From contig NZ_MPKA01000135.1 of the NCBI RefSeq assembly GCF_001945605.1, positions 1 through 21,279 of the forward strand: a DNA stretch of 21,279 nt, read 5' to 3'. The stretch comes from Dubosiella newyorkensis (GTDB lineage Bacteria > Bacillota_I > Bacilli_A > Erysipelotrichales > Erysipelotrichaceae). This document shows, piece by piece, positions 2,199-19,360 of the stretch. Under the pieces are notes generated by a model. That model made no database searches. It had not been told where the DNA came from and saw nothing but the letters and a program-made list of their open reading frames with translations. Position numbers and translations under genes: made by a program. Position 1 is the first letter of the stretch. Every line of letters begins with the position of its first letter.

Positions 2199-2219
2199 GA
2201 ATTCAATGTCCTAGCTCTT
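2190..2219. terminator. Perfect 10-bp inverted repeat (AAGAGCTAGG / CCTAGCTCTT, 10-nt loop) spanning both stop codons of the convergent MBL and cysE genes; candidate bidirectional terminator
   Basis: The arms are at 2190-2199 and 2210-2219. The MBL TAG stop (2196-2198) lies in the left arm and the cysE TGA stop (2203-2205, minus strand) in the loop. T-rich sequence follows the hairpin on both strands. Confidence 0.5.
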
Positions 2220-2775
2220 TGTGTTCGTTTCTCAATTGGGCAAGCGCGTTGTTGATCTCCTTTTGTTCACGAACCGGATAGGCCGGAGAAGGGATCATTG
2301 TCGTATACGGCTCTACCGATTTGATGATGATCGAGCCAGCGCCGATCTTGCAGCCTTTATGAAGCACGATATTTCCGATCACTTTACTTCCAGCACCGAT
2401 CACCACATCCTCTTCGACAGTCGGATGCCGTTTGCCGCTCACTTTCCCTGTCGCCCCCAACGTAACACCTTGATAGATCATTACGCGATCATGGATCACG
2501 CATGTCTCGCCAATCACGACACCGCTGCCATGATCAATAAAAACATCTTTGCCGATCACGGCTCCAGGATGAATATCGATCCCCGTCTTTCTTTGCGCTC
2601 TCAAAGAAAGGATACGAGCCAGCGCAGGATGTTTTGGATACAATTTATGCGTAAAATAATGCGTATTCAACGCCTTGAAGCCAGGCATGAAAAAAATCTC
2701 GACCGTACTGTGCAAAGAAGGATCTAAACGCTTGATCGTCTTGATCTGCCCTTTGACAAACTGAATAAAACCCAT
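2203..2775 (-). CDS. cysE: Serine O-acetyltransferase
   Basis: Hexapeptide-repeat core 'GIDIHPGAVIGKDVFIDHGSGVVIGETCVIHDRVMIYQGVTLGATGKVSGKRHPTVEEDVVIGAGSKVIGNIVL' is typical of CysE. I chose the ATG at 2775 (MGFIQ...) because AGGAGG lies 7 nt upstream. The longer ORF-track start at 2832 would overlap apbE. Confidence 0.85.
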   Translation of the reverse strand: MGFIQFVKGQIKTIKRLDPSLHSTVEIFFMPGFKALNTHYFTHKLYPKHPALARILSLRAQRKTGIDIHPGAVIGKDVFIDHGSGVVIGETCVIHDRVMIYQGVTLGATGKVSGKRHPTVEEDVVIGAGSKVIGNIVLHKGCKIGAGSIIIKSVEPYTTMIPSPAYPVREQKEINNALAQLRNEHKELGH

Positions 2776-2792
2776 ATACGATCCTCCTGTGC

Positions 2793-3908
2793 TCAGCTTA
2801 GACGAAGCGAATCCTTTAAACCATCTGTACAATAGATCGCGTATCGATCCGTTGTGAATTGTGGAACGAGTCCATCGATTTTTTGATCAAGATTTACGAT
2901 CCATACAGCTTGCAAGTGATTGGCTTTGCAGAAGTCCATTCCTTCTTTGACAGGCATGCAGAATAGAGTCGTGCTCATCGCATCGGCCCATGCCGATTTA
3001 TCATGCGTATCGATCACAGTGACACTACGCATATATTCGGAAGGATATCCGGTCGTTGGATCGATGATATGACTATACTTTTTACCATCCACTTCCATAT
3101 ACCGCTGATAGTCTCCGGAAGTGACCATCACGACAGGACCCTTCGTCACAAATTGTACGACACTATCCGACTCGTCGGGAGATTGGATGCCAATGACCCA
3201 ATCTTTGCCGTTGAGCTTTTCACCAAGAAGAACGACATTGCCCCCGGCATTAATATAGCCATTGTTCAATCCCGCTTCATTCAATTTTTTGGCCGCGACG
3301 CCCGCCGTGTATCCTTTGGCGATCCCGCCAAGATCGAGCTTCAAGTTTGGATCCGTGAACTTTACCGTATCGCCACTGATCTTGATCGCTTGAATGCCAT
3401 CATGCTTTTTGGCCTCTTCAATATCTGTTGCGCTTGGCACATAAGGCGTTTTTGCCTCTCGTGCATCGTGCCACAAACTCAACACTTTTCCTTCAGAAAC
3501 ATCGAAGCGTTGATCAAGCTCGCCTGCCTTGATCGCAAGATCAAGACAATCAATCATTGCTGGATCGACTTTGACAGGATGCGAATACGCTTCTTGATTC
3601 AGAGTATAGACGTTGTTGATCCCTTCATACGAATGATATTGGTCAAAGATCTCGTTATACTCTCTAAACGTATCCTTTAAGATCGATTCATACTTGGCAA
3701 ACTGTTCTGGCGTACATGTGGCCTGGAAGGAAATCGGCGTATCGAAGCCTAAGTCGGTATACGTTTCGTTATACAATTTTGTCTTGCTCATCGAAGAGCG
3801 CGAACTCATAAAGGTAACTAAGCCAAAGATCAACACTAAAAAGCAAAGTGAACCAAAAATCCACAGCTTAATATGTGAAGTCTGTTTTTTTTGTTTATTT
3901 TGTTCCAT
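2793..3908 (-). CDS. apbE: FAD:protein FMN transferase (ApbE family), N-terminally membrane-anchored
   Basis: ApbE hallmarks are 'DLGGIAKGY', 'VMVTSGDYQRY' and 'YSHIIDPTTGYP'. The N-terminal hydrophobic segment is 'IKLWIFGSLCFLVLIFGLVTF'. I took the start as the ATG at 3908 (MEQNK...); the ORF-track start is a TTG at 3923. Neither has an SD (see findings). Confidence 0.85.
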   Translation of the reverse strand: MEQNKQKKQTSHIKLWIFGSLCFLVLIFGLVTFMSSRSSMSKTKLYNETYTDLGFDTPISFQATCTPEQFAKYESILKDTFREYNEIFDQYHSYEGINNVYTLNQEAYSHPVKVDPAMIDCLDLAIKAGELDQRFDVSEGKVLSLWHDAREAKTPYVPSATDIEEAKKHDGIQAIKISGDTVKFTDPNLKLDLGGIAKGYTAGVAAKKLNEAGLNNGYINAGGNVVLLGEKLNGKDWVIGIQSPDESDSVVQFVTKGPVVMVTSGDYQRYMEVDGKKYSHIIDPTTGYPSEYMRSVTVIDTHDKSAWADAMSTTLFCMPVKEGMDFCKANHLQAVWIVNLDQKIDGLVPQFTTDRYAIYCTDGLKDSLRLS

Positions 3909-3945
3909 GGTCCCATTATACAAAAAAGAGAAAGAATCCTAAAAT

Positions 3946-4024: not shown

Positions 4025-5314
4025 ATGTCACTTTTTCTTGGAAAAATGTGCGAACGGATCCCTGGTCACAAGTCAGCGACCGATCATGAGTCCATATTAG
4101 ATATCATGCCGACTAAAGAAGTCTATATTCCTTTAGTCGCTGGAAACAATACTAACTTCGAGATCCTCGTCAATGAAGGGGATCAAGTTTATATTGGTAC
4201 GAAGCTGGCCCAAACCAAAACGGGATTCAACGTTCCGATCTATTCAAGTGTTTCCGGAACATATACGGGACAAACAAAACGAATGCATTCTTCGCTCCGT
4301 CCGCAAAATCACATGGTCATTCAAATCGACCACAAACAAACAGCGATACAAGCTTTCGAACCGATCCAATATGAGAACGCGAGCGCAGAAGAGCTTCTCG
4401 AATTTACAAAAAATTCTGGTTTGGTTGGATTGGGAGGAGCTGGTTTTCCTACGTATGTTAAATACTTGAAGCCAGAAGGTATCCATACGATCTTGATCAA
4501 CGCGGTCGAATGCGAACCATACATCACAGCCGACTATAAACTCGTCATGAACGATCCAAAGCACTTGATCGATGGCGCCAAGATCATGAAAAAAATGGCT
4601 AACGCTCAACATGCGTACATCTGCATCAAAAAGAATCATCCCGATATGATCGATATCGTCAAACAAGCCGCTCAAGGCAGCGATATCGAAGTGAAGGAAG
4701 TGCCAAATGTCTATCCGATGGGGTGGGAGAGAGTGCTCGTCCGCGAAGTCATGAAAAAAGAATACGACAAATTGCCAAGTGAAGCAGGCGTGATCGTCAA
4801 TAATGCCGGAACGGCGATCGAGCTTGCAAGAATGATGGAATATGGCGAAGCGATCGCTAACAAAATCGTCACCGTATCAGGCGAAGCGGTCAAACGACCG
4901 ATCAATGTCCGCGTTCCTGTAGGAATGCCAGTAAAAGAAATCTTCGAGCAAACTGGCTTCAACACCGATTCTGTCCGTTTGATGGCAGGCGGACCGATGA
5001 TGGGAAAAGTCATTCCGAACGATATGTTCGTGATCGACCGCGCCATGAACGCGCTCACGATCCTTCCTGGAACCGTCGACGATGCTATCGCATGTCTACG
5101 CTGTGGTAGCTGTTCGGATCATTGTCCTGCCGGATTGCAGCCAGTGCGGATCGCGAACGCTGTCAAAGAAGGCAATCTTGAAGAAATGGAACGCCGCCAG
5201 GCGATGAGCTGTATCGAATGTGGCCTTTGCACCTACATATGTCCTAGCCACATCGAAGTCACAGAAAACGTGCGCAAAGCAAAACGGGCATTGGCTTTGC
5301 AGAAAAAGAAGTAG
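4025..5314 (+). CDS. rnfC: Rnf electron transport complex subunit C
   Basis: 'GLVGLGGAGFPTYVKY' is the NADH/FMN-binding module. Two ferredoxin-type motifs are present: 'CLRCGSCSDHCP' and 'CIECGLCTYICP'. It is the first gene of a C-D-G-E-A-B cluster. Confidence 0.95.
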   Translation: MSLFLGKMCERIPGHKSATDHESILDIMPTKEVYIPLVAGNNTNFEILVNEGDQVYIGTKLAQTKTGFNVPIYSSVSGTYTGQTKRMHSSLRPQNHMVIQIDHKQTAIQAFEPIQYENASAEELLEFTKNSGLVGLGGAGFPTYVKYLKPEGIHTILINAVECEPYITADYKLVMNDPKHLIDGAKIMKKMANAQHAYICIKKNHPDMIDIVKQAAQGSDIEVKEVPNVYPMGWERVLVREVMKKEYDKLPSEAGVIVNNAGTAIELARMMEYGEAIANKIVTVSGEAVKRPINVRVPVGMPVKEIFEQTGFNTDSVRLMAGGPMMGKVIPNDMFVIDRAMNALTILPGTVDDAIACLRCGSCSDHCPAGLQPVRIANAVKEGNLEEMERRQAMSCIECGLCTYICPSHIEVTENVRKAKRALALQKKK

Positions 5315-5325
5315 GGGGATGAAGT

Positions 5326-6498
5326 ATGAAGTTTAATTTCCACGTCAGCCCGAACTTGAAAGGAAAACAAACCACGCAACAGATCATGCGCGATCTAACG
5401 ATCGGACTTCTCGTCATCTTTCTTTGCGCATGTATCTATTATGGAATGAATTATGGAATGCGTTATGTTCTCCAATTGTTCCTTTTGCTGGCTTGTTCTC
5501 TATTGACAACTTTGGTGTGTGAAGCGATCTACGCCAAGATCTTAAAAATCGATATTAAAACTTTTTTGAAAAATTCATTTGGCTGGGTGACGGCGATCAT
5601 CTTGACGATGATGTGCCCGATCTCCATCACGCCATTCGCTTTGATCATTGCCACGATCTTCGCGATCGTGATCGGACGCCTTCTTTTTGGCGGGTTTGGT
5701 CAAAACATCTTCAATCCAGCCGCTGTTGGACGAGCTGTCATCTTCGCCGCGTTTGCTGGCGCCACGACAGACCTTGTCACATCAGCCACGCCAACGGCGA
5801 CGATCGCCAGCAACTATCATTGGCTTCCGGCAACGCCAGAAGTATTCGATAGTTTCTTGAGCGAATATGGTGGATTCTGGAATTTATTCCTCGGAAATTA
5901 TCCTGGGGCGATCGGAGAAACCTTCACCTTGGCGATCTTGGTCGTAGGCATTTTCTTGATCGTTCGTCATGTCATCGATTGGCGTGTACCTGTCATGTAT
6001 CTAGGCACGATCATCGTGATGACAGCGATCATCGCTCTTGTTTCAGGAATCGAATCGTACAATGGGATCCCAGCCTTGCTTTGGTATCCGGCCCTTCACT
6101 TAGTGACAGGAGGAATCGTGTTTGGAGCGGTGTTCATGCTTACCGACCCAGTCACCAACCCAACAAGCGCTGCAGGCCGTGTGTTCTTCGCGATGGGTGC
6201 AGCGATCCTGACCGTTCTTTTAAGAATGAAGGCGAACTTGCCAGAAGGCTGTCTGTATTCGATCTTGTTGATGAATATGTTCACGCCAATGATCGAGTCA
6301 GCGATGGATGGCAATCAGCTCAAGATCGCGAAAAAAGTTTGGATCACATTCGCTTGCTTCTGCGTTTTAGCCCTTGGCGTTTCTTTCTTTGCTGGAAGTA
6401 GCGTAGAACCAGTTCGCGAACTGAATACATCGTCTTCTGCAACAAACGGAGCCACGGCCTTTGAAATGCCAACGATCCAAGAGGAGGTCTCTTTATGA
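5326..6498 (+). CDS. rnfD: Rnf complex subunit D (NqrB-like membrane subunit)
   Basis: Polytopic membrane protein with 'GQNIFNPAAVGRAV', 'MLTDPVT' and a flavinylation-type motif 'DLVTSATPT'. Its stop overlaps the rnfG start (ATGA). Confidence 0.95.
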   Translation: MKFNFHVSPNLKGKQTTQQIMRDLTIGLLVIFLCACIYYGMNYGMRYVLQLFLLLACSLLTTLVCEAIYAKILKIDIKTFLKNSFGWVTAIILTMMCPISITPFALIIATIFAIVIGRLLFGGFGQNIFNPAAVGRAVIFAAFAGATTDLVTSATPTATIASNYHWLPATPEVFDSFLSEYGGFWNLFLGNYPGAIGETFTLAILVVGIFLIVRHVIDWRVPVMYLGTIIVMTAIIALVSGIESYNGIPALLWYPALHLVTGGIVFGAVFMLTDPVTNPTSAAGRVFFAMGAAILTVLLRMKANLPEGCLYSILLMNMFTPMIESAMDGNQLKIAKKVWITFACFCVLALGVSFFAGSSVEPVRELNTSSSATNGATAFEMPTIQEEVSL

Positions 6499-7004
6499 AA
6501 AAGATCATCCATCTCACTGTGTTCTTAGCGCTCGTCTCTGCGATCGCAGGCGGAGCCCTCGCCTACGCCAACCAGCTAACAGCGCCGATCATTCAAGAAA
6601 ACAACGAACGAGCTGAAAAACAAGTGCTCTTGGAAATGTATCCAAAAGCGAAAGTCGACGACTTTGAGATCATGGATGTCACGGTCGACAACCCAACAGT
6701 CAATAAGATCTACAGCTATGAAAACAACTATATCTTTAATATGTCTGTGTCTGGCTACAAAGATGGAACGACATTCTTGGTAGCGATCGACAAAGACAAT
6801 GGACAGATCACTGCTTTTAAAGCTATTTCGAATGGCGATACAAAAGGCATTGGTTCAAAAGTTACAGAAAGCGCATTTGCGGAAAGCTTGATCGGAAAAG
6901 AATCCAATGGGGAATTGGATACGATTTCAGGAGCGACTGTGACTTCGACACCAGTGATCGAAGGAATTCATGAGGCGAGCGATATCGTCGCCGAAATCGA
7001 TTAA
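6495..7004 (+). CDS. rnfG: Rnf complex subunit G (FMN-binding, NqrC-like)
   Basis: N-terminal membrane anchor, then 'LDTISGATVTS', the covalent-FMN threonine motif targeted by ApbE. SD GAGGAGG lies upstream. Confidence 0.9.
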   Translation: MKKIIHLTVFLALVSAIAGGALAYANQLTAPIIQENNERAEKQVLLEMYPKAKVDDFEIMDVTVDNPTVNKIYSYENNYIFNMSVSGYKDGTTFLVAIDKDNGQITAFKAISNGDTKGIGSKVTESAFAESLIGKESNGELDTISGATVTSTPVIEGIHEASDIVAEID

Positions 7005-7674: not shown

Positions 7675-8250
7675 ATGTCCGAATTGATCACATTGTTTGT
7701 CACGAGCGTATTGATCAACAACGTCGTTTTGAACCAATTCTTAGGAATGTGTCCATTCATGGGTGTATCCAAGAAAAGAAGTTCTGCGATCGGTATGGGT
7801 CTTGCGGTTATCTTCGTTATCGTCGTTGCCGCTCTTATCACCTACGCGATCTACTATTGGATCCTCGTTCCGCTCAATTTGCAGTACATGGATTTGATCG
7901 CTTTCATTCTAGTCATCGCTTCTTTAGTGCAGTTGACAGAGATGTTTATCAAAAAAACAAGTCCAGCCCTCTATAAATCATTAGGGGTGTACTTGCCGTT
8001 GATCACGACCAACTGTGTCGTATTGAACGTATGCTTGGTCAATATTTCAAACAGTTATGATTTTGCTCATATGCTCGTTTATTCGATTGGTACGCCAATT
8101 GGTTTCGCGCTCGTTCTCTATATCTTCTCGACGATTCGGGAACGACTCGATATCGCCAATGTGCCAAATCCATTAAAAGGAAATCCGATCGCGATGATCG
8201 TGGCCGCTATCATGGCCATGGCGTTCAGCGGATTTGCAGGCATCGTATAA
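7675..8250 (+). CDS. rnfA: Rnf complex subunit A (NqrE-like)
   Basis: 'NNVVLNQFLGMCPFMGVS' and 'GVYLPLITTNCVVLNV' are RnfA/NqrE signatures, including the two Cys. SD AAGGAGG lies upstream. Confidence 0.95.
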   Translation: MSELITLFVTSVLINNVVLNQFLGMCPFMGVSKKRSSAIGMGLAVIFVIVVAALITYAIYYWILVPLNLQYMDLIAFILVIASLVQLTEMFIKKTSPALYKSLGVYLPLITTNCVVLNVCLVNISNSYDFAHMLVYSIGTPIGFALVLYIFSTIRERLDIANVPNPLKGNPIAMIVAAIMAMAFSGFAGIV

Positions 8251-8429
8251 TGGAATTAAAATCAGCGCTTGGAGCGATCGTCGTCTTTGGAAGTCTTGTC
8301 GGCGTATACATCACGTTATACAAGCTCAATAAAAAGACGCCGCTTCCTCCAGGATGCGAAGATCTAAAAGCGGATTGTGAAGGCTGCCACGATTATGCCT
8401 GCACGAACAATCCGCATCATGAACGATAA
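8250..8429 (+). CDS. Small (59 aa) single-TM, Cys/His-rich membrane protein of unknown function, encoded between rnfA and rnfB
   Basis: It falls just under the 60-aa cutoff, so it is absent from the ORF track. The ATG at 8250 overlaps the rnfA TAA (TAATG). Hand translation: MELKSALGAIVVFGSLVGVYITLYKLNKKTPLPPGCEDLKADCEGCHDYACTNNPHHER. The layout is hydrophobic helix, basic patch, then C-x6-C-x2-C-x4-C. It ends 14 nt before the rnfB ATG, and its codon style matches the flanking genes. Confidence 0.55.
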   Translation: MELKSALGAIVVFGSLVGVYITLYKLNKKTPLPPGCEDLKADCEGCHDYACTNNPHHER

Positions 8430-8443
8430 GAAAGGAGCTACGT

Positions 8444-8749
8444 ATGGGTACAGCGATCATAATGATGCTCGTTTTAGGCGCCGTATTAGGCTTAGGCCTA
8501 GGTCTTGCCAGCAAGTTCTTGCATGTGGAAGCCGATCCAAGAATCGACTACGTATCAGCCCTTCTTCCTAACTACAATTGTGGCGGATGCGGCTATGCTG
8601 GATGTTCAGCGCTGGCGGAAGCAATGGTGGAAGGCGAAGTTTCTGACTTCAAATGCAAGCCATGCAAAGCCGATAAAAAAGCGGAAATCATCGACTACTT
8701 AAAAAACACCCCAGGACCAGAAGGGGAAACGGTAACGATCAAAGGATAG
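8444..8749 (+). CDS. rnfB: Rnf complex subunit B, short form: membrane anchor plus N-terminal Fe-S domain only, no ferredoxin-like dicluster domains
   Basis: TM helix 'AIIMMLVLGAVLGLGLGLA', then 'LLPNYNCGGCGYAGCSALAEAMVEGEVSDFKCKPC', the RnfB N-terminal Fe-S cluster motif. SD AAGGAG lies upstream. The ORF stops at 101 aa, inside a terminator stem. Confidence 0.8.
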   Translation: MGTAIIMMLVLGAVLGLGLGLASKFLHVEADPRIDYVSALLPNYNCGGCGYAGCSALAEAMVEGEVSDFKCKPCKADKKAEIIDYLKNTPGPEGETVTIKG

Positions 8750-8799: not shown

Positions 8800-9360
8800 T
8801 CAATACCAATAAAATAAGAAAAACCGACCAATATTCAAGACGAAGATAAACAGAAACAGCCATCGAAGCGGCAGCTTGTACGATCCAATCTTTTTGAAGA
8901 ATACAAAATAGATCAACCATCCGATGAAAACACCGAACGTGTTCATGATCAAATCATCCACATCGCTCACTCTTTCATTGAACAACTGGGAAAACTCAAT
9001 GAACAGCGAACCAAGAAAACCGCACCCCATAGTTTCTAGAAATGGATGCTTTTCCTTGAACAATAAGGGAATCAAAACCCCGAAAGGAACAAAAAGCACG
9101 ACATTCAAAACGTAGCCGATCTTCGAAATCCCGGTCGAAAACGGGACAAAATTCAAATTGAGATCCGCGGATGTAAAATCCAAAATATCAAAAATCGTGC
9201 TCGGATCGGTGAAGTGAAGCATGCCAGCGATATAGACACCAAAAGTCACGAGCAGATAAAACAGCGGATTGCTGATGTAAAGCATCCCTTTTTTCTTCAA
9301 ATGATTTAAAAGAAAGAAATAGGGAAGAAAGCTCGTCAAAAATTCGAACGTATTGATCAT
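8800..9360 (-). CDS. VanZ-like family membrane protein
   Basis: Multi-TM protein with 'NVVLFVPFGVLIPLLF' and 'SLFIEFSQLFNERVSDVDDLIMNTFGVFIGW', matching the VanZ family pattern. Its ATG overlaps the rqcH stop (ATGA, 9357-9360). Confidence 0.8.
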   Translation of the reverse strand: MINTFEFLTSFLPYFFLLNHLKKKGMLYISNPLFYLLVTFGVYIAGMLHFTDPSTIFDILDFTSADLNLNFVPFSTGISKIGYVLNVVLFVPFGVLIPLLFKEKHPFLETMGCGFLGSLFIEFSQLFNERVSDVDDLIMNTFGVFIGWLIYFVFFKKIGSYKLPLRWLFLFIFVLNIGRFFLFYWY

Positions 9361-11006
9361 GAACGAACTTGATACCTCTCAATCCAATGTTCGACGAGCG
9401 ATTCATCCGGATCGATGTAGATCGTCTTATACGATTTCATCGTCACAAAGCCGATCTTAGAGCCAGGGACCTTCTTCAGCTGAGAAATCGTCGTATAGTC
9501 GACAGGAACCGAACTCGAGTGCCTTCCTTTCGAAAAGTAAGTCGCCAACATCGCGCACATCCGAATGAGAGACTCGTCCACCTCTTCGCTTTTCAACAAT
9601 ACATGCGAACCATGATAATCTTTGACATGGAACCAGACATCGTTTTTATTGCCTAAATGATGCGTGATATAGTTGTTCTGCAAGTTGTTCTTGCCAACAT
9701 AAATATCCGCTTCATCTACTTTTAAATGTAAGACATGGGGACGCTTCGGCTTCTTTTTCCCTTTCGCCGCTTTTTTAGGAAGCAAATATTTATTTTTGAT
9801 CAATTCCTCCCGGATCTCGAGACCATCTTCCCAAGAAGCGTGTTGCAGCTGTTCTTTGAGCTGCGTGAAATATTCGATATCCTCCTGGCAGCGCGCGATC
9901 TGCTCTTCTAAAATCGAAAGCGAACGCTTCATCTTATGATATTTCTGGTAATATTTGTTTGCGTTTTGTTTCAAATCAAAACGCATATCGATCGGGATCT
10001 TCACATCCTTGCCGCTTTCGAAATCCGGAAGCGTGACGATCTTTTCTTTCTCGATTGTTCCCATATAGGCGAAAAGTAGATCGCCATACACTTGATATTT
10101 TTGATAATCTTTCGCGCTGAGCAAAGAACTCTCCAATTTTGGAAGTTTCTTCAAATGCTTGTTGAGTTCCTGATCAACGATCCGAAAGACATCTCCGCAT
10201 TGCTCCTTGATCCGAACTTTCGCTTCATTATAGGCATACAATTTATCGAGCCCATCCATCAAAGAATAGACTTTCGCCTCTTTTTGAAGATGCAAGAGAG
10301 GAAGGACATGGAAATTCTTTTCATCATACACATATAAGTTTTGCGAAGAAAACAAGGCGTCGTTGATCTCTTCCAAAGGCTCTTCCTGATGAAGACGATA
10401 AAGATACTCTTTGCTCAATAAAGGCGAGAAGCCTTGTACTTGCTTGGTCAAAGGGGAATCAAGATCTAGCTCTTCAAGTTTGACACGATCGATCGTGTAT
10501 CTTTTTTCCTGTGGAGGCAACATATATTTTGCGCCAGGATGGATCAACCGCTTCGAATTTTCAAATACGGGGATCCGCTTGAGTGCGTCAATGATCGTCC
10601 CACCCTCATCGACTAGGATCAAGTTGGCATACTTACCCATCAATTCCGCATAGAGTTTAAGATCTTTCGCATCTCCAAGTTCATTATGCCCTTTGATATG
10701 AAAGATCAAGATCCGATCGAAACCAGCCTGATTGATCGAGTCGACGATCCCTTGCGAAAGGTATTTTCGAAGAACCATCACGAAGTTGGACGGATTGGGC
10801 TGCGTATTCAAACCATGATCATGAAAATAGATCCGATTCGTATTCGAATGAACATTGATGATCAAACGGACATTTCCTAATTTTTGAGTATGGATATGAA
10901 GAACGATTTCTTCTTCGCTTAAATTTTGGATCTTGCCGATCTTTCCCGATTCAAGATCCTTGAGCTGCCTGCTCAAGCAATGCAGCATGAGGCCATCGAG
11001 TGCCAC
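9357..11006 (-). CDS. rqcH: Ribosome quality control protein RqcH (NFACT family; historically called fibronectin-binding protein A)
   Basis: The N-terminus 'MALDGLMLHCLSRQLKDLESGKIGKIQNLSEEEIVLHI' is the NFACT-N pattern. A central coiled coil follows, and the C-terminus 'WFHVKDYHGSHVLLK...VPVDYTTISQLKKVPGSKIGFV' is the NFACT-R/DUF814 pattern. GTG start with GGAGGG 7 nt upstream. Confidence 0.9.
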   Translation of the reverse strand: MALDGLMLHCLSRQLKDLESGKIGKIQNLSEEEIVLHIHTQKLGNVRLIINVHSNTNRIYFHDHGLNTQPNPSNFVMVLRKYLSQGIVDSINQAGFDRILIFHIKGHNELGDAKDLKLYAELMGKYANLILVDEGGTIIDALKRIPVFENSKRLIHPGAKYMLPPQEKRYTIDRVKLEELDLDSPLTKQVQGFSPLLSKEYLYRLHQEEPLEEINDALFSSQNLYVYDEKNFHVLPLLHLQKEAKVYSLMDGLDKLYAYNEAKVRIKEQCGDVFRIVDQELNKHLKKLPKLESSLLSAKDYQKYQVYGDLLFAYMGTIEKEKIVTLPDFESGKDVKIPIDMRFDLKQNANKYYQKYHKMKRSLSILEEQIARCQEDIEYFTQLKEQLQHASWEDGLEIREELIKNKYLLPKKAAKGKKKPKRPHVLHLKVDEADIYVGKNNLQNNYITHHLGNKNDVWFHVKDYHGSHVLLKSEEVDESLIRMCAMLATYFSKGRHSSSVPVDYTTISQLKKVPGSKIGFVTMKSYKTIYIDPDESLVEHWIERYQVRS

Positions 11007-11781: not shown

Positions 11782-12240
11782 ATGGAACATTTGAAAGAAT
11801 GGATCGAACAAGTCTTGAATGACAATGGCTGCTCTCTCTATGAACTTGAATGGCTCAAAGAAGAAGTGACCCCAATTCTTCGTGTATCGATCGAAAAAAA
11901 AGGTGGTTCTGTCGATTTGGATACGTGCACGCAGTGTTCAGACGCGATCAGTGCCATGCTCGATGAAAAAGATTGGAACGACAACGAGTATTTGCTCGAA
12001 GTCTGCTCGCCAGGGGCGGAGCGCGAACTCAAAAACTACGATCAGATCAAAGCCCAAGAAAACGGCTACGTATTTGTAAAACTCAAAAATCCGAAACAAG
12101 GAGTCGATCAAGTTTTTGGTGATCTCGTTCACGTCGAACCCGAAGTGATCACCCTCTCTTATAAAGTCAAGGGACGTCCAAAAAAGATCACGATCGAAAT
12201 GGACAATATCCAGCTGATCAAGACAGCTGTCAAACTATAG
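11782..12240 (+). CDS. rimP: Ribosome maturation factor RimP
   Basis: 'YLLEVCSPGAERELK' matches the RimP signature (SSPG..R.L). It sits in the conserved position directly upstream of nusA. Confidence 0.9.
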   Translation: MEHLKEWIEQVLNDNGCSLYELEWLKEEVTPILRVSIEKKGGSVDLDTCTQCSDAISAMLDEKDWNDNEYLLEVCSPGAERELKNYDQIKAQENGYVFVKLKNPKQGVDQVFGDLVHVEPEVITLSYKVKGRPKKITIEMDNIQLIKTAVKL

Positions 12241-12252
12241 GAGTGAAGAAGC

Positions 12253-13881
12253 ATGAAAGCGAAATCAAAAAGCCCTAAACTCAAAGTAGAAGCTTTGACT
12301 AGCGCCCTTCAAGGGATCGAAAGCAACCATCAATTGGACAAAGCGACGATCGAAGAAGCCTTGAAGGAGGCGCTGACCAAAGCGTACCAAAAACAAGCGA
12401 AGCTCTCTGTCAAAAGCAACGACTTGAGAGATGTCATGGTCAAAGTCGAGATCGTCAATGGAATCATCCATATTTATCAGCAGCGCGAAGTCATGAACGA
12501 TGACGACATCGAAGACGACGAACTCGAGATCTCGCTCGAAGAAGCGCGTAAGATCAAACCGGACGCCAAGATCGGCGATATGATCGATGAAGAAGTCGAT
12601 TTCACGACATTCGATCGAGCCGCAGTCGTTCTCGCCAAAAATGTCATGAAACAAAAGATCCGCGAAGCGGAAAAACAGCTCGTCTATGAAGAATATTGCG
12701 ATAAGGTCGATGAAATGGTCAGTGGTGTCGTAGAAACCGTTGAAGAAAAATTCATTCTAGTCGATTTAGGAAAGACCTACGCGATCATGACGAAAAACGA
12801 TCAGATCCCGACAGAAACCTATAAAGAAGGAGAGCGGATCAACGTCGTCATCACCGAAGTCAATAAAGAAACAAAAGGCGCCCAAGTCCACGTGTCTCGT
12901 TCCACTCCCGTCTTTGTAAGACGCTTGTTTGAACGAGAAGTGCCGGAAATCTACAATGGAACGATCGAGATCAAAGCGATCGCCAGGGATCCTGGAGAAA
13001 GATGCAAGATTGCCGTGCATTCCCATAACGAGAATATCGATCCGATCGGCGCTTGTATCGGCCCAAGAGGCGCTCGTGTACAGGCGATCATCAATGAGCT
13101 CAACGGAGAAAAGATCGACATCTTCGAATGGTCGGACAATATCGCCACGCTCATTTCCAACGCGCTCTCTCCAAGCGAAGGAGTCGCTGTCATTCCAAAC
13201 GACAATGTGAAAGATGGCTTGATCGTCGTCGTACCAGACAATCAGCTTTCTCTTGCGATCGGAAAAGGCGGAAAGAACGCCCGTTTAGCTGTCAAGCTTT
13301 CCGGCCATAAGATCGATATCAAGTCGCAATCCGAAATGGATGCTCTTGGCATCGACTATATGGGCATCGCCGCCAAGATGCAGGAAGAATACGAAGCGAA
13401 GAAAGCGAAAGAAAGAGCCTATAAACAGCAAGAAAAGATCAAAGCGCTCAAAGAAAGCAACGACGAGATCGAAAATGTCGATGTGGCTGAATTCGATTAC
13501 GACGAGGAAGAAGAAGAAAACGCGCCAGTCGAAAGCTTGTTCGAAACCGAAAAGAACCGGGAGCTTTCGGAAATGGAAGAAGCGGCCCGTCTTGCCAAAG
13601 AAAAACGCAAATCCGGTCATGAAGTCAAAGAATACACTTCTAAATTCGAAGAGTTCGCCGGCACTGGAAAACCAGAACCAAAAGCGTTTGTCACAGAAGT
13701 TAAAAAAGAAGAGCCTAAAGTGGAAAGTCCAAAAGAAGAAGTCAAGAAAGCCATTGTCGAAGGCATCAAGCCGATCTATTCGGATGAAGAGTTGGCCGAG
13801 ATCGAAGAGAGCGAATACGACGATGATGTCTGGGACGATGATATCGACTACGAAGAATACGATTCGTACTATGATGATTAG
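12253..13881 (+). CDS. nusA: Transcription termination/antitermination factor NusA with a long acidic low-complexity C-terminal extension
   Basis: S1 and KH regions: 'VSGVVETVEEKFILVDLG', 'DPGERCKIAVHS...DPIGACIGPRGARVQAIINELNGEKIDI' and 'LSLAIGKGGKNARLAVKLSGHKIDIKS'. Roughly 190 further residues are E/K/D-rich and end in 'YDDDVWDDDIDYEEYDSYYDD'. Confidence 0.95.
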   Translation: MKAKSKSPKLKVEALTSALQGIESNHQLDKATIEEALKEALTKAYQKQAKLSVKSNDLRDVMVKVEIVNGIIHIYQQREVMNDDDIEDDELEISLEEARKIKPDAKIGDMIDEEVDFTTFDRAAVVLAKNVMKQKIREAEKQLVYEEYCDKVDEMVSGVVETVEEKFILVDLGKTYAIMTKNDQIPTETYKEGERINVVITEVNKETKGAQVHVSRSTPVFVRRLFEREVPEIYNGTIEIKAIARDPGERCKIAVHSHNENIDPIGACIGPRGARVQAIINELNGEKIDIFEWSDNIATLISNALSPSEGVAVIPNDNVKDGLIVVVPDNQLSLAIGKGGKNARLAVKLSGHKIDIKSQSEMDALGIDYMGIAAKMQEEYEAKKAKERAYKQQEKIKALKESNDEIENVDVAEFDYDEEEEENAPVESLFETEKNRELSEMEEAARLAKEKRKSGHEVKEYTSKFEEFAGTGKPEPKAFVTEVKKEEPKVESPKEEVKKAIVEGIKPIYSDEELAEIEESEYDDDVWDDDIDYEEYDSYYDD

Positions 13882-13889
13882 AGGTCAGA

Positions 13890-14147
13890 ATGCGAAAAAT
13901 ACCGATGAGAAAATGTGTCGTGACCAACGAACGCTTTCCTAAAAAAGAATTGATCCGCGTCGTTCGCACGCCAGAAGGCAAAGTCGTGATCGATACGACC
14001 GGAAAGAAAAACGGACATGGCGCTTATATCCAAAAATCAAAAGAAACCTTTGAGAAAGCCAAAAAGAACAAAGCGCTCGCGCGCGCTTTAGAAATCGAGA
14101 TCCCCGAAGAGATCTATACACAGCTCGAGGCGATGCTTGATGAATAA
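13890..14147 (+). CDS. ylxR: YlxR/RnpM family (DUF448) RNA-binding protein
   Basis: 'RKCVVTNERFPKKELIRVVRTPEGKVVIDTTGKKNGHGAYI' is the DUF448 pattern. It holds the conserved slot between nusA and infB. Confidence 0.9.
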   Translation: MRKIPMRKCVVTNERFPKKELIRVVRTPEGKVVIDTTGKKNGHGAYIQKSKETFEKAKKNKALARALEIEIPEEIYTQLEAMLDE

Positions 14148-14430
14148 AATGATTTCAATGATCCAAATGGCGATGCGCGCAAGAAAGGTCGCGACAGGCG
14201 ATCAAGTCATTTCGAGCATTCAAAGCCGCAAGGCGAAGCTCGTGCTCTACTCCTCGAGTTGCGGAGAGAACAAAAGCAAGAAGCTGATCGACAAATGCGC
14301 CACATTCTATGTGCCGATCTATGAAATCGACGCCAAAGACTTTGACGCGATCTCAAATTCGCCGATCTCTTCGCTTTCCATCTTGGATGAAAACTTCGCG
14401 AAGGGAATATTGAAACATAGGAAAGGATGA
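14140..14430 (+). CDS. ylxQ: L7Ae-family ribosome-associated protein YlxQ
   Basis: '[41 protein letters not shown]' fits the L7Ae/YlxQ pattern. I took the ATG at 14140; the ORF-track start is a TTG at 14137. It overlaps the ylxR 3' end. Confidence 0.85.
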
Positions 14431-16295
14431 GTGATTCAATGGCAAAACCACAACAAAAACGAAAACCAACCAATAAACGAGGACATAATAATCGAAACAA
14501 CCGGCCGCACAACAGCGCTCCAAGAAGGAGCCACGATTATCCTACCGAGATCACATACTCCAATGCGCTCAGCGTAGGACAGCTCGCCGAGCTCATGAAA
14601 CGCAATAGCTCAGAACTCATCAAGTTCTTGTTCATGATGGGAAACATGTCGACGATCAACACGGTCCTTTCCGATGAAGAAGTCGAATTGATCTGCATGG
14701 AATTCAATGTCACTCCGCATAAAGAAGTCGTGATCGATGAAGACGATATCGAAGAACAAATCGACAAAATGGAATTCGATGAATCCGAATTGAAGCCGCG
14801 TCCACCAGTCGTAACGATTATGGGACACGTCGACCATGGAAAGACGACTTTGCTTGACACGATCCGGAAAACCCATGTGACCACTGGCGAATTTGGAGGC
14901 ATCACCCAACATATTGGCGCGTACCAAGTCAATTTGAACAATCGCAAGATCACGTTTTTAGACACACCAGGCCATGAAGCGTTCACCGCTATGCGTGCTC
15001 GAGGCGCGCAGATCACCGATATCGTCGTTTTGATCGTCGCTGCTGATGATGGAGTCATGCCGCAAACAAAAGAGTCGATCGACCACGCAAGAGCCGCAGG
15101 TGTACCAATTGTCGTAGCCGTCAACAAAATCGATAAGCCAGGCGCCAATCCGGACAAAGTCATGGCGGAACTCGCTGATAATGGCGTCATGCCAGAAGAA
15201 TGGGGCGGAGACACGATCTTCACCCAGATCTCGGCGCGCAGCGGAGAAGGGGTCAACGATCTTTTGGAAACGATCCTTTTAGTCGCGGATATGCAAGAAC
15301 TGAAAGCCAATCCGGACACGAATGCGACAGGAACGGTCGTGGAAGCCAAGCTCGACAAAGGGCGAGGACCGGTAGCGACTTTGCTCGTGCAACAAGGAAC
15401 GCTTCATACAGGAGATAGTGTTGTTGTTGGTACAAGCTATGGGCGTGTTCGTAAAATGAGCAACGATAAAGGAATGGAAATCAAGACGGCAACGCCATCG
15501 ATGCCAGTCGAGATCATTGGTCTGAATGAAGTGCCTCGCGCAGGCGATGTCTTCATGACCTATGATTCGTATAAAAAGGCAAGCGAGATCGCCAACCATC
15601 GTTTAGAAAAACAAATCGAGAAAGAACGAAACCAATCCAGCGCGCTCTCTCTTGAAGATCTCGCCCGTCAAATCAATGAAGGCGATGTCAAAGATATCAA
15701 CATTTTGATCAAAGCCGATGTGCAAGGTTCTGCCGAAGCGCTCAAGGCAAGCATGGAAAAGCTCGATGTCGATACGGTCCGTGTCAATGTGATCCGCTCG
15801 ACCGTGGGAACGATCACAGAATCCGATATCATGCTCGCCAGCGCCTCCAACGCCATCATTTATGGATTCAATATTCGTCCAACGGCTGCGATCCGCAAAA
15901 AAGCCGAAGAAGAAGGCGTCGAGATCCGTTTACACAACATTATCTATAAAGCGCTGGAAGAATTGGAAAGCGCCATGAAAGGTATGCTTGCTCCAGTTTA
16001 TGAGGAAGTCGTGATCGGACAAGCCGAAGTTCGTCAAATTTATAAAGTTTCGAAAGTTGGAACGATCGCCGGATGCATGGTCACAGATGGAGCGATCCGC
16101 CGAGATTGTTCGGTCCGCCTCATCCGTGATGGAATCGTGATTTATACAGGCAAGCTCGGTTCTTTGCGTCGATTCGAAAATGACGTCAAAGAAGTGACAA
16201 GCGGCTATGAATGCGGTATGACGATCGAAAACTTCAACGACATCAAAGTCGACGATATCATTGAAGCCTTTGAAGATCAGGAAGTGAAAGAATAA
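14427..16295 (+). CDS. infB: Translation initiation factor IF-2 (short N-terminal region)
   Basis: G-domain motifs '[12 protein letters not shown]', 'DTPGHEAF' and 'NKID', plus IF-2 domains through '[23 protein letters not shown]'. The ATG at 14427 overlaps the ylxQ stop (ATGA). An alternative ATG at 14439 is possible. Confidence 0.96.
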
Positions 16296-16779: not shown

Positions 16780-17842
16780 AAAATGAAAAGAATTCACCAA
16801 CTTCAAATTTAGAAGTTTTAGGAGGTAGACTATGAATCATACTAAACGTGACGAGCACTCAAATTCGTGGAATCTTGCTAAAAAAACAGTTTTTACGATC
16901 AGTGGTCTTTTGTTTTCGTCGTTTTTGATGCAGCTGCCTATTTACGCGGAAGGACAAGATGCTGTCGATCCCGTTCAAGAAGTCGAAAAAGAAACGAGTC
17001 ATGAAGAAGGACAAAACTCACCAAATGAATCAAGTTTAGAAAGCCTCCATGAAGACTTGTCTGATCAGCCCAAAAACTTCCTCCTATAATCGAAGAAAAT
17101 ACCAAAGAGCCATCTTTCTCGCTCGATAACCCAGAATCTGTGAACCAACCAGCAACGCAAGAGGAAGCGCCAAGTAAGTTCAAGATCAACCAAAAAACGA
17201 AGCGACTCCAAGGATAGAAGCGGATGCGCAGTCATCTACTCCAGAAAAACAAAACAGCGTGGCGACACTCGATTTTATGATCAAGTCGAAGGCTCTTTGT
17301 TAGAGACAAAAACGTATACAAGCTATGTTGGCGATCCGATCGGGCTTCCTTCCAAAGAACAGCTCGAAGCGGAATATCCAAGCACAAAATATACGATCGT
17401 TTCCGGAATGTGGGATATTGATCCAATCTATCAAACCGACAGCAATAATAACCAATTCAAATTGTATTTAGGCCACGTATTTAAGGAAGAGGTCCGTGAA
17501 AAAGATGTTCATGTAACGACAGAGTTTCTAGATTACGAAACCAATGCCGTCCTTCATGCTCCAATCACGCAGACCGCTCATTTTGAACGAACATGCAAAG
17601 TCGATCAAGTCAATGGCAACTTCGTTTGGGGACCAGAACCCGATCCGTTCCAATTAAAAGGGATCGATTTGAGCTCTTTAGGTATCTATGAACAAGGGTA
17701 TAGGCCTAAACCGTGGAAAATCTCGAGCAATTTGATCGTGCATTATGATGATCTTGACGATACGCAAAGCGTTGTTGAATACTTCGCCAAAGGGTATGTC
17801 GCTACGATCAATTTTTATGATGACAGCGTCGATCCAAGCAAG

Positions 17843-18037
17843 AACGTGTTCTCGATCCATTATAAACATCGGCTTCTGCACGATACCTACGATGAAGATG
17901 TCACACGGACGATCCATTTGATCGATCAAATCAATCAAAAAGAGATCGCCGATCCGATCCAACAAATCGTGCATTTTAGCCTTCCTGGTGTTTACGGCTA
18001 TCACGCCAAGGAATGGACATGGGATTGGGATCATTTT
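17843..18037 (+). repeat. Intragenic repeat copy A (65 codons: NVFSIHYKH...VTRTIHLIDQINQ...WTWDWDHF)
   Basis: By hand alignment, about half of the 65 residues are identical to copy B. Nucleotide identity is high in the 'ACGATCCATTT.ATCGATCAA..CAATCAAAA' core. Confidence 0.7.
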
Positions 18038-18952
18038 AACGATACATCATCTTGGAAGGTGCTGAGTGCGAAAGAAATTAAAGACTATTTGGCGACTCAA
18101 AACAACGATCGATATATTTTGCTGAGCGATCCTGTACCGGCCCAGACTGTCGTCTATGATGAAAACGACACCGATCAAACGGTTGATCTCTACTTTGTGC
18201 CTGCCTATCAAGCCATTTTAAGATGGGTCGATGAAACGACTGGAAAAACGCTGGAAACATGGACTTCAAAAGAAGGAAAAGCGAACGATTCGATCGTTTT
18301 TGACGAAAACGTCCAACAGACGCTCGATCATTATCAAACACTTTATTATGATCTCGTATCCAATCCGATCAAAGAAGGGCTTGTATTGAATGACGATCCG
18401 ACTTTGAACGGTTACGCCATCTATTTAAAGCATCAGATCAAAACCGAACGTGTAAGCAATACTGTCAAAGTGCCAATCGATCTTTTGGCTGGCGATCCAA
18501 ATGACAAAACAACATGGAAGCTATTGCACCACGATGAATGGAGCCATACGTTCTATCGGCCTCAATACACCGATTTTGTTACTGGCGTGATCACATTTGG
18601 GGTATACGAGGATCCAAAAGAAGTGATGTTCGAATATACATTCCCGACTTTTGAAGGATACATGAAGCCTGATCCAGCACAATTTAGTCCGATGAAGGTC
18701 ACGTGCGATGATGAAACAGGTTTTTTGAGCATACAACAATTTTATATTCGCATCAAAGAAGCTGTACTGAATTTTATCGACGACGACCAAGACGGAAAGA
18801 TCGTTTGGAGCCAGAAAGCGACGATCGCCGAACACAAGCCGATCGAATTCGTCTATCGGGATTACTATAAAAAATGGTTTTCGGATCATGGCATGAAGGT
18901 TGTTTCGGATAATTATGAAAAGCGGATCATCAATATGGATGATCCGGCGAAA

Positions 18953-19147
18953 AACATCTTCGAGATCCATCTAGAACATGTCAAATCGCCAACGACATTT
19001 ACAAAAAAAGTGACGCGCACGATCCATTTTATCGATCAAGCCAATCAAAACGTATTGAAAGATCCGGTCGAACAAACCGTGACCTTCATATTGCAAGGAA
19101 CAAAAGACGAATGGAGTCAAGAAACGACATGGGACTGGGATCACTTC
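18953..19147 (+). repeat. Intragenic repeat copy B (65 codons: NIFEIHLEH...VTRTIHFIDQANQ...TTWDWDHF)
   Basis: Pairs with 17843-18037. It is the same length with the same conserved blocks (VTRTIH.IDQ.NQ, DP..Q.V.F, TWDWDHF). Confidence 0.7.
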
Positions 19148-19360
19148 AGCAACATCCAAGAATAGAGCGCTTATCAAGCGCCGGTTGCTAAAAACAACAC
19201 AAGTCGAGAAGAACATCAAACGGAGATCCCGGCTTATACAAAAAAAGCAACCTCTTCTTCGGTGCCTACAGTTGTTCATACAGGTATATTCCAAAGTCTG
19301 GTCGGCATGGCTGCTTCCTTGTTTGGGATTTCATTATTCAAAAAACATAAAAAGGAGTAA

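Follow-up and report, generated by a model that had tools for sequence, protein, structure and literature searches.

A conserved 59-codon gene for a Cys-rich membrane protein lies between rnfA and a short rnfB in a variant Rnf operon of Dubosiella newyorkensis

In anaerobes, the Rnf complex is central to energy conservation and redox balance. We analysed a stretch of 21,279 nucleotides (nt) from Dubosiella newyorkensis (assembly GCF_001945605.1, contig NZ_MPKA01000135.1, positions 1 to 21,279; called the window below), in which all six families RnfC, D, G, E, A and B were found with Pfam and NCBIfam profiles. An open reading frame (ORF) of 59 codons, for which we use the working name X, is located between rnfA and rnfB. 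X is a genuine, strongly conserved, rnf-linked gene that co-occurs with a short form of RnfB, and three of its four Cys residues are nearly invariant. The gene order rnfC-D-G-E-A-X-B is a variant Rnf operon of Erysipelotrichaceae and related reduced Bacilli or 'Mollicutes'. Coordinates of the features are given in Table 1.

The stop codon of rnfA and the start codon of X have one base in common, which indicates translational coupling, and X has its own TAA, which ends 14 nt before the ATG of rnfB. An earlier reading of this DNA, made from the sequence only, had placed X in just this way; the distance between rnfA and rnfB that it gave as 194 nt measured 193 nt. The same reading had called the ORF unannotated. 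An identical protein of 59 amino acids (aa) is deposited at NCBI as 'hypothetical protein [Dubosiella newyorkensis]', and the gene is already annotated in public records, but nameless.

Related loci were collected by a scan based on RnfA with one genome per species. The scan returned 80 loci, of which 79 cover the whole interval; almost all are labelled as Erysipelotrichaceae genera or as metagenome-assembled genomes (MAGs) of Erysipelotrichaceae, Erysipelotrichales or Bacillota, and three bins are labelled Bacteroidaceae, Segatella or Waltera. An open ORF of 53 to 66 aa with all four Cys was present between rnfA and rnfB in 79/79 complete loci, and stops, frameshifts or loss of Cys, looked for in the same loci as signs against a gene, were not seen. 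The overlap with rnfA is 1 nt or 4 nt in about 58 of the 79, and in other lineages X overlaps the start of rnfB by 1 to 8 nt. When codons were compared, the median proportion of synonymous differences (pS) was 0.78, at saturated sites, against a nonsynonymous proportion (pN) of 0.32. The ratio of nonsynonymous to synonymous rates (dN/dS) was 0.22 to 0.33, i.e. purifying selection; third codon positions vary most and Cys codons alternate between TGT and TGC. A conserved frame and a dN/dS below 1, both proposed earlier as checks on relatives, were found in the Erysipelotrichaceae loci, together with all four Cys.

An ORF of only 59 codons, first spotted by eye, could be a spurious frame in a non-coding spacer. 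However, the frame is kept in every complete locus and in distant lineages, the Cys codons change synonymously under purifying selection, X has been called independently as a gene in thousands of contigs, and a search of positions 8150 to 8550 against Rfam matched no family to the X interval. The conservation data already refute this explanation, and its chance of being right is practically nil.

The RnfB protein of the window is unusual in its length, a feature absent from the sequence-only reading, and this short RnfB is what X tracks. In canonical RnfB a further domain at the C-terminus, which holds two to seven [4Fe-4S] clusters, accepts ferredoxin (PMC12174285). The window protein, called mini-RnfB here, aligns with RnfB models no further than about position 90 of the 190 to 290 in the profiles, and RnfB is 100 to 106 aa long in 78/78 Erysipelotrichaceae loci. 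No C..C..C...C motif was found in the RnfB of the window, of these 78 loci or of the eight short metagenome loci described next.

As an independent sample, metagenome contigs were scanned with the conserved N-terminal motif of RnfB, and the 80 loci found were classified by RnfB length. X was directly upstream of rnfB in all eight loci with a short complete RnfB (105 to 131 aa, no ferredoxin motif), in none of the 65 loci with a long RnfB and in none of the seven in which RnfB was cut by the contig end and its length is unknown. The association of X with short RnfB was thus perfect in this sample. In 31 long-RnfB loci with rnfA or rnfE directly upstream, the gap was -32 to 127 nt, mostly 9 to 34 nt, which leaves no room for X. 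Two loci (L128 and L150) taken at first for short RnfB without X were both frameshifted long RnfB genes on low-coverage contigs, with RseC upstream.

A gene like RseC (also called RnfF) adjoined rnfB in 33 of the 80 metagenome loci (L112-L182), that is, in 32 of the long-RnfB loci, in one of the cut loci and in none of the short-RnfB loci. These genes encode proteins of about 140 aa with C-x2-C-x5-C and two transmembrane helices. All of them precede rnfB apart from those of L121, L147 and L163, which follow it. The sequence-only reading had held that canonical rnf operons have no dedicated small Cys-rich gene, and in this RseC/RnfF was overlooked. X and an RseC-like gene never occurred together at one sampled locus. 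A hidden Markov model (HMM) of RseC, built from the metagenome sequences and run in six frames over the window and L001-L101 (817 kb of X-bearing loci), detected no RseC-like ORF.

Table 1. Coordinates of X, of the variant rnf operon and of other features of the window and of compared loci.
Feature	Position	Strand	Remarks
X	8250..8429	+	59 aa plus stop; bitopic Cys-rich membrane protein; translation MELKSALGAIVVFGSLVGVYITLYKLNKKTPLPPGCEDLKADCEGCHDYACTNNPHHER
TAATG overlap	8248..8252	+	rnfA TAA 8248-8250, X ATG 8250-8252, A8250 common to both
Predicted transmembrane helix of X, residues 3-27	8256..8330	+	AlphaFold2 model
Juxtamembrane signature of X, N27-K-K-T-P-L-P-P-G-C36-E37	8328..8360	+	family consensus N-[KH]-[KR]-T-P-x-P-x-G-C-E
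Core Cys cluster of X, C43-x2-C46-x4-C51	8376..8402	+	with C36 (8355-8357), C-x6-C-x2-C-x4-C
Spacer X-rnfB, 14 nt	8430..8443	+	GAAAGGAGCTACGT; holds AAGGAG Shine-Dalgarno for rnfB
mini-RnfB, 101 aa	8444..8749	+	ATG at 8444; transmembrane helix and single-cluster PF04060 (C-x2-C-x4-C-x16-C); C-terminal domain of 2-7 [4Fe-4S] absent
rnfA, 191 aa	7675..8250	+	TIGR01943, 255.9 bits; carries two Cys ligating the intramembrane [2Fe-2S] cluster
rnfE, 219 aa	7014..7673	+	profile match
rnfG	6495-7004	+	profile match
rnfD	5326-6498	+	profile match
rnfC	4025-5314	+	profile match
apbE	2793..3923	-	PF02424, 227 bits; flavin transferase maturing RnfG and RnfD; divergent from rnfC
Hexapeptide-repeat acetyltransferase-like ORF	2203-2832	-	downstream of apbE, same strand; longest listed start
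VanZ-family protein	8800-9360	-	
RqcH/NFACT ribosome-quality-control protein	9357-11006	-	
rimP-nusA-infB cluster	11782-16295		
MucBP/Muc_B2 mucin-binding surface protein	17297-19165	+	
RseC-like genes, examples	L150 428-850; L128 141-566		adjoining rnfB
Divergent X-like genes	L085 6001-6186; L101 240-437		outside rnf operons
RnfE with ferredoxin domain, 283 aa	L096 4559-5410	+	
Enlarged flavin subunits	L081 1216-2208; L086 3580-4620; L094 3152-4600; L099 3231-4667; L082 2702-4159; L091 2521-4182		RnfG or RnfD
apbE-PF07009-PF07456 trio	L089 6526-8401; L091 6645-8935; L099 6575-8627		

The same arrangement was seen in lineages far from Dubosiella. Ten of 12 distant X contexts place X between rnfA and an RnfB of 93 to 121 aa with only the PF04060 domain, and in such operons the stop and start codons often overlap on both sides of X. 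The other two (L085 and L101) are divergent relatives outside rnf. In the operon of one MAG lineage (L096) RnfE bears a genuine C-terminal 2x[4Fe-4S] ferredoxin domain (CKKCGMCARNCP...CQKCGACEANC), and X and an RnfB of 96 aa are both retained beside it; it seems that RnfE has taken over the ferredoxin module.

X belongs to a family of some size. A profile search of a database clustered at 90% matched 569 clusters, and an exhaustive HMM search of 1.84 billion representatives at 50% identity matched 266 at E<=1e-3, nearly all of 45 to 95 aa. Members with a named source, every one of them called 'hypothetical', come from Erysipelotrichaceae and from MAGs of 'Bacilli bacterium' and 'Mollicutes bacterium'. 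The top match of the exhaustive search (P0122, 2325 aa) is irrelevant, because its score sums 23 repeats of 'RRCEEFKGDHEGCVNTACPNNADVKCDYD' in a secreted-looking, eukaryote-like Cys-repeat protein, a chance or convergent resemblance to GCE..K.DCEGC...ACTNNP. Of the two divergent members outside rnf operons, P0173 has three Cys and no GCE motif; its gene is immediately preceded by an unannotated gene of 570 aa, and genes for NifU-like and rhodanese proteins lie 4 to 5 kb upstream of it. The gene of P0229 is upstream of a UDG gene and a gene for the S component of an energy-coupling factor (ECF) transporter.

Conservation was counted residue by residue over 137 representatives, in the numbering of the window protein. 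The Cys pattern C-x6-C-x2-C-x4-C of the earlier reading corresponds to C36, C43, C46 and C51, and its three His to H47, H56 and H57. The three core Cys are kept in 99 to 100% (C43 in 136/137, C46 in 137/137, C51 in 136/137), and the C..C....C motif is present in 127 of the 137. The first, C36, is kept in only 101/137 (74%). In the variants P0111, P0123 (Ileibacterium-type), P0131, P0141 and P0149 it is replaced by Met, Ala, Tyr or Leu and C-x2-C-x4-C is kept; P0131, with GAE in place of GCE, is still encoded in an operon of the form rnfA-X-short-rnfB (L081). The linker between helix and cluster is conserved as well (P33 in 137/137, N27 in 126/137, T30 and G35 each in 112/137).

The first part of X was modelled with confidence by AlphaFold2 from an alignment of 35 sequences, with block means of the predicted local distance difference test (pLDDT) of 91 and 96 for residues 1 to 20 and 79 for residues 21 to 30. 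Among the 137 representatives, Lys and Arg beside the helix average 1.3 on its N-terminal side, with the amino terminus counted, and 2.2 on its C-terminal side. This excess after the helix predicts that the N-terminus is outside and the C-terminus inside, so that the Cys cluster would be cytoplasmic, on the same side as the cluster domain of RnfB and the cytoplasmic opening of RnfA/E. A real coding gene, coupled to rnfA, with one predicted transmembrane helix ahead of a basic patch and a Cys cluster, and dedicated to the Rnf operon: this much of the sequence-only reading was borne out. A profile search of PDB sequences with X gave only non-specific matches to transmembrane helices (E>=0.15) and no relatives.

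Among known families, the FeoB-associated Cys-rich family (PF12669) is the closest to X by sequence. It was the only recurrent Pfam match, with 23 of 46 members of the X family at E<=10 (best 6e-4) and 18 of the 137 representatives at E<=0.01 (best 5.7e-5), and the sub-threshold matches span both the transmembrane helix and the Cys tail. The cluster P0103 bears a precomputed PF12669 match, and UniRef names some Faecalitalea members accordingly. The resemblance pointed out in the sequence-only reading is real, but the window protein itself scores 14.3 bits (E=0.05), below the gathering score of 27 bits. Like X, members of PF12669 have a helix first and then a Cys-rich tail, are of the same size and are likewise uncharacterised in function. 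Their published motif, Cx3-5Cx2-3Cx6-8C (PMC8749426), differs from Cx6Cx2Cx4C.

These likenesses, together with the two divergent relatives outside rnf operons, would fit a general iron-handling protein of the PF12669 type that sits in the rnf operon for supply or regulation and is not a partner of the complex. The gene contexts argue against it. Apart from those two relatives, X is always in an rnf operon; feoB is in none of the 12 distant contexts, X is flanked by rnfA and rnfB in the 79 complete genome loci, and the position between these two genes is invariant across deep divergence. We regard this explanation as very improbable.

NqrM (PF04400/DUF539) was the relative favoured by the sequence-only reading. 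No match to PF04400 (gathering score 22 bits) was obtained for the X of the window, for the 46 members at E<=10 or for the 137 representatives at E<=0.01, while an NqrM-like sequence used as control scored 78.7 bits and the NqrM proteins retrieved all carry PF04400. Alignment with hhalign of X against 35 NqrM proteins covered the transmembrane helix and the basic patch only, and no part of the Cys region (probability 56 to 75%, identity 13 to 14%). The NqrM motif is GSCGG-x9-C-x-C-x3-C (C-x11-C-x-C-x3-C, with the end K-x-C-D-C-x2-P-C), against GCE-x5-C-x2-C-x4-C in X. As judged from sequence, X is not a detectable relative of NqrM.

The likeness in overall build stands. Like NqrM, X has a transmembrane helix at its N-terminus, then a basic stretch beside the membrane, a Gly-Cys motif and four Cys that are cytoplasmic in the predicted topology, all within 60 to 75 or 60 to 80 aa, and like NqrM, which is encoded with the homologous NQR complex and apbE, it is encoded near apbE. 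Of the NqrM-like architecture proposed earlier, the helix, the four Cys and the length of about 60 aa hold; the spacing of the Cys and the gene position differ from those of NqrM. The gene nqrM is at the end of its operon, after apbE (PMC12174285), in contrast to X, which is between two structural genes and coupled to both. NqrM goes with NQR generally, and X only with one subtype of Rnf.

X might still do the work of NqrM, that is, deliver Fe or Fe-S transiently to the four Cys of RnfA and RnfE, where the [2Fe-2S] cluster is built, and remain outside the finished complex. NqrM is thought to be needed to insert the homologous cluster in NQR (PMC12174285). The cluster-ligating Cys of RnfA and RnfE are retained in the window, where the paired motifs reported earlier are present in the translations (LGICSTLA and VNCIILG in RnfE; LGMCPFMG and TTNCVVLN in RnfA), and another maturation gene, apbE, adjoins the operon. 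A maturation role would also explain why X persists where a ferredoxin domain is fused to RnfE. On the other side, besides the lack of homology and the differences in spacing and position, the intramembrane [2Fe-2S] cluster is common to all Rnf complexes (PMC12174285), yet X is in none of the 65 long-RnfB loci, and the first Cys is missing in 26% of the representatives. We consider a maturation factor of this kind rather unlikely.

The nearest parallel in published work is RseC. In E. coli RseC the cytoplasmic motif is CX5CX2CX5C, of which the first Cys is neither conserved nor needed; the conserved last three form an O2-sensitive [4Fe-4S] cluster, and the protein interacts with RsxB and RsxD (PMC11729352). 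In C. ljungdahlii rseC immediately precedes rnfC, and Rnf-dependent autotrophy requires rseC (PMC9124969). Like X, RseC is membrane-anchored and tied genetically to its complex (Rnf/Rsx), often adjoining rnfB or rnfC where X lies inside the rnf operon. The Cys pattern of X, one residue kept in 74% of the representatives ahead of three kept in 99 to 100%, resembles that of RseC in its logic, but the spacing CX2CX5C of RseC is off by one residue from the CX2CX4C of X. In their distribution the two are complementary, RseC-like genes going with long RnfB and X with short RnfB.

The N-terminal module of RnfB itself (transmembrane helix and PF04060) is also like X in having an N-terminal membrane anchor followed by C-x2-C-x4-C. 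X lacks the distal fourth Cys of RnfB (x16-C) and the helical body of PF04060. With hhalign the tri-Cys stretches were aligned (DCEGCHDYAC of X with NCGGCGYAGC of RnfB) over 12 to 17 columns at 10 to 58% probability, which is not significant, and X was rejected as a paralogue of the RnfB N-terminus.

We propose that X is a membrane-tethered Cys3(+1) module for an Fe-S cluster or metal and that it acts together with mini-RnfB on the cytoplasmic side of Rnf, where electrons enter, and we put the probability of this reading at about 0.5. The proposal is drawn from the RseC-like conservation of the Cys, the tie to rnfB and the complementary distribution. As the seventh product of the variant operon, this single-pass protein of roughly 60 aa would use its linker N-K-K-T-P-x-P-x-G-C-E to set C-x2-C-x4-C, with the dispensable upstream Cys, at the cytoplasmic surface of the membrane. 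The Cys may serve as ligands of a labile Fe-S cluster or of a metal ion, by analogy with RseC, and X would dock beside mini-RnfB and the RnfA/RnfE dimer. It would then be an accessory of the electron-input side, the role that RseC/RnfF appears to play where RnfB is full-length. We infer the topology of X, its binding of metal or Fe-S and its contact with RnfB, RnfA and RnfE from sequence, synteny and analogy, and X may be either a lasting subunit or an assembly factor.

Several observations weigh against this proposal. The Cys tail of X has no confident fold in the AlphaFold2 model (pLDDT 50 to 60), as would be expected for a segment that depends on a metal or on a partner. The co-occurrence of X and short RnfB is confounded by phylogeny, both traits marking one clade. 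RseC is a protein of about 140 to 160 aa with an N-terminal cytoplasmic Cys domain before two transmembrane helices (PMC11729352), and X is of about 60 aa with the helix before the Cys tail. A scan with PF04246, the RseC model, matched neither the 46 nor the 137 members of the X family, and hhalign aligned X with 35 RseC-like metagenome sequences over the transmembrane helix only (probability 55 to 62%) and with E. coli RseC alone at 2%. Homology to RseC was not detectable in these comparisons, and RseC is kept only as a functional analogue; the relation of X to RseC is one of analogy, not of demonstrated homology. The function of RseC is itself unsettled, and V. cholerae and A. woodii assemble Rnf in its absence (PMC11729352). 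Finally, X is kept in the operon whose RnfE bears a ferredoxin domain, so it is not simply a stand-in for the lost domain of RnfB.

Since X matches neither NqrM, RseC, RnfB nor PDB entries, and PF12669 only below threshold, it forms a family of its own with no curated model.

A purely structural role is another reading. X would then be a small subunit with a Zn knuckle of three or four Cys, or one that folds against RnfB, and it would stabilise or anchor mini-RnfB on RnfA/E with no role in redox or cluster delivery. Conservation as strong as that of the linker (above all P33 and N27) is usual where proteins bind each other, X is strictly tied to a truncated RnfB that is short of most of its cytoplasmic mass, and X is translationally coupled to both neighbours. 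But C-x2-C-x4-C has the spacing of the first three ligands of the RnfB [4Fe-4S] motif, even if the alignment between them is not significant, and the comparable motif of RseC binds an Fe-S cluster. This makes a structural subunit quite unlikely in our view.

A wider reading is more likely wrong than right. X and the mini-RnfB of about 100 aa would form a previously unrecognised minimal electron-input module, and X would be the third independently evolved family of membrane-tethered Cys-cluster partners of Rnf/Nqr, beside RseC and NqrM; its Fe-S cluster might relay electrons from a different cytoplasmic donor or be passed to RnfB or to RnfA/E. Such an Rnf subtype would work without the polyferredoxin domain used by all structurally characterised Rnf complexes. 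To our knowledge, the three Rnf structures solved so far each contain six or seven known subunits, with several clusters in RnfB. An RnfB without the polyferredoxin domain raises the question of the cytoplasmic redox partner of the short-RnfB subtype.

This subtype is widespread. It is seen in Erysipelotrichaceae of the gut (Dubosiella, Faecalibaculum, Holdemanella, Allobaculum, Faecalitalea and others) as well as in related 'Mollicutes/Bacilli' lineages, and its hallmark is a stripped-down RnfB plus an obligatory extra Cys-cluster membrane protein of 60 aa. X is a handle on how electrons enter an Rnf complex without the ferredoxin-docking domain, on what accessory proteins of the RseC type do, and on the assembly of the intramembrane [2Fe-2S] cluster and of the RnfB cluster. 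It is also a functional small protein just under the common cut-offs of 60 aa and is labelled 'hypothetical' everywhere.

Full-text literature searches (RnfB/Erysipelotrichaceae, NqrM/Rnf, Acholeplasma/Rnf and flavinylation) found no description of X or of the short-RnfB subtype. Cys-rich membrane accessories of Rnf and Nqr are known in RseC and NqrM, and what appears to be new is the X family, together with its invariant place in the operon and its tie to a minimal RnfB. The rnf genes of the mollicute Peloplasma aerotolerans were listed as MDI6452236-38, 40-41 and 43, with 39 and 42 skipped (PMC11122141). The gaps fall at rnfG-rnfE and at rnfA-rnfB (gene 42, the position of X), which, from the accession numbering only, is consistent with an extra gene that was ignored.

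The distant X operons differ from that of the window in other subunits too. Their RnfG is 330 to 482 aa long instead of about 170 to 200 aa, and RnfD either carries a fused FMN_bind domain (485 aa) or is lengthened to 553 aa; these enlarged extracytoplasmic flavin subunits are a hint that electron transfer on that side of the membrane may be altered or supplemented. In several distant lineages rnfB is directly followed by a conserved trio: apbE, a gene for a NusG_II-domain protein (PF07009) and a gene for a PF07456 membrane protein labelled 'heptaprenyl diphosphate synthase component I'. The apbE gene of the window differs from this trio arrangement in being divergent and upstream of rnfC. About 40 nt of its ORF are shared with the downstream acetyltransferase-like ORF on the same strand when the latter is taken from its longest listed start (TTG).

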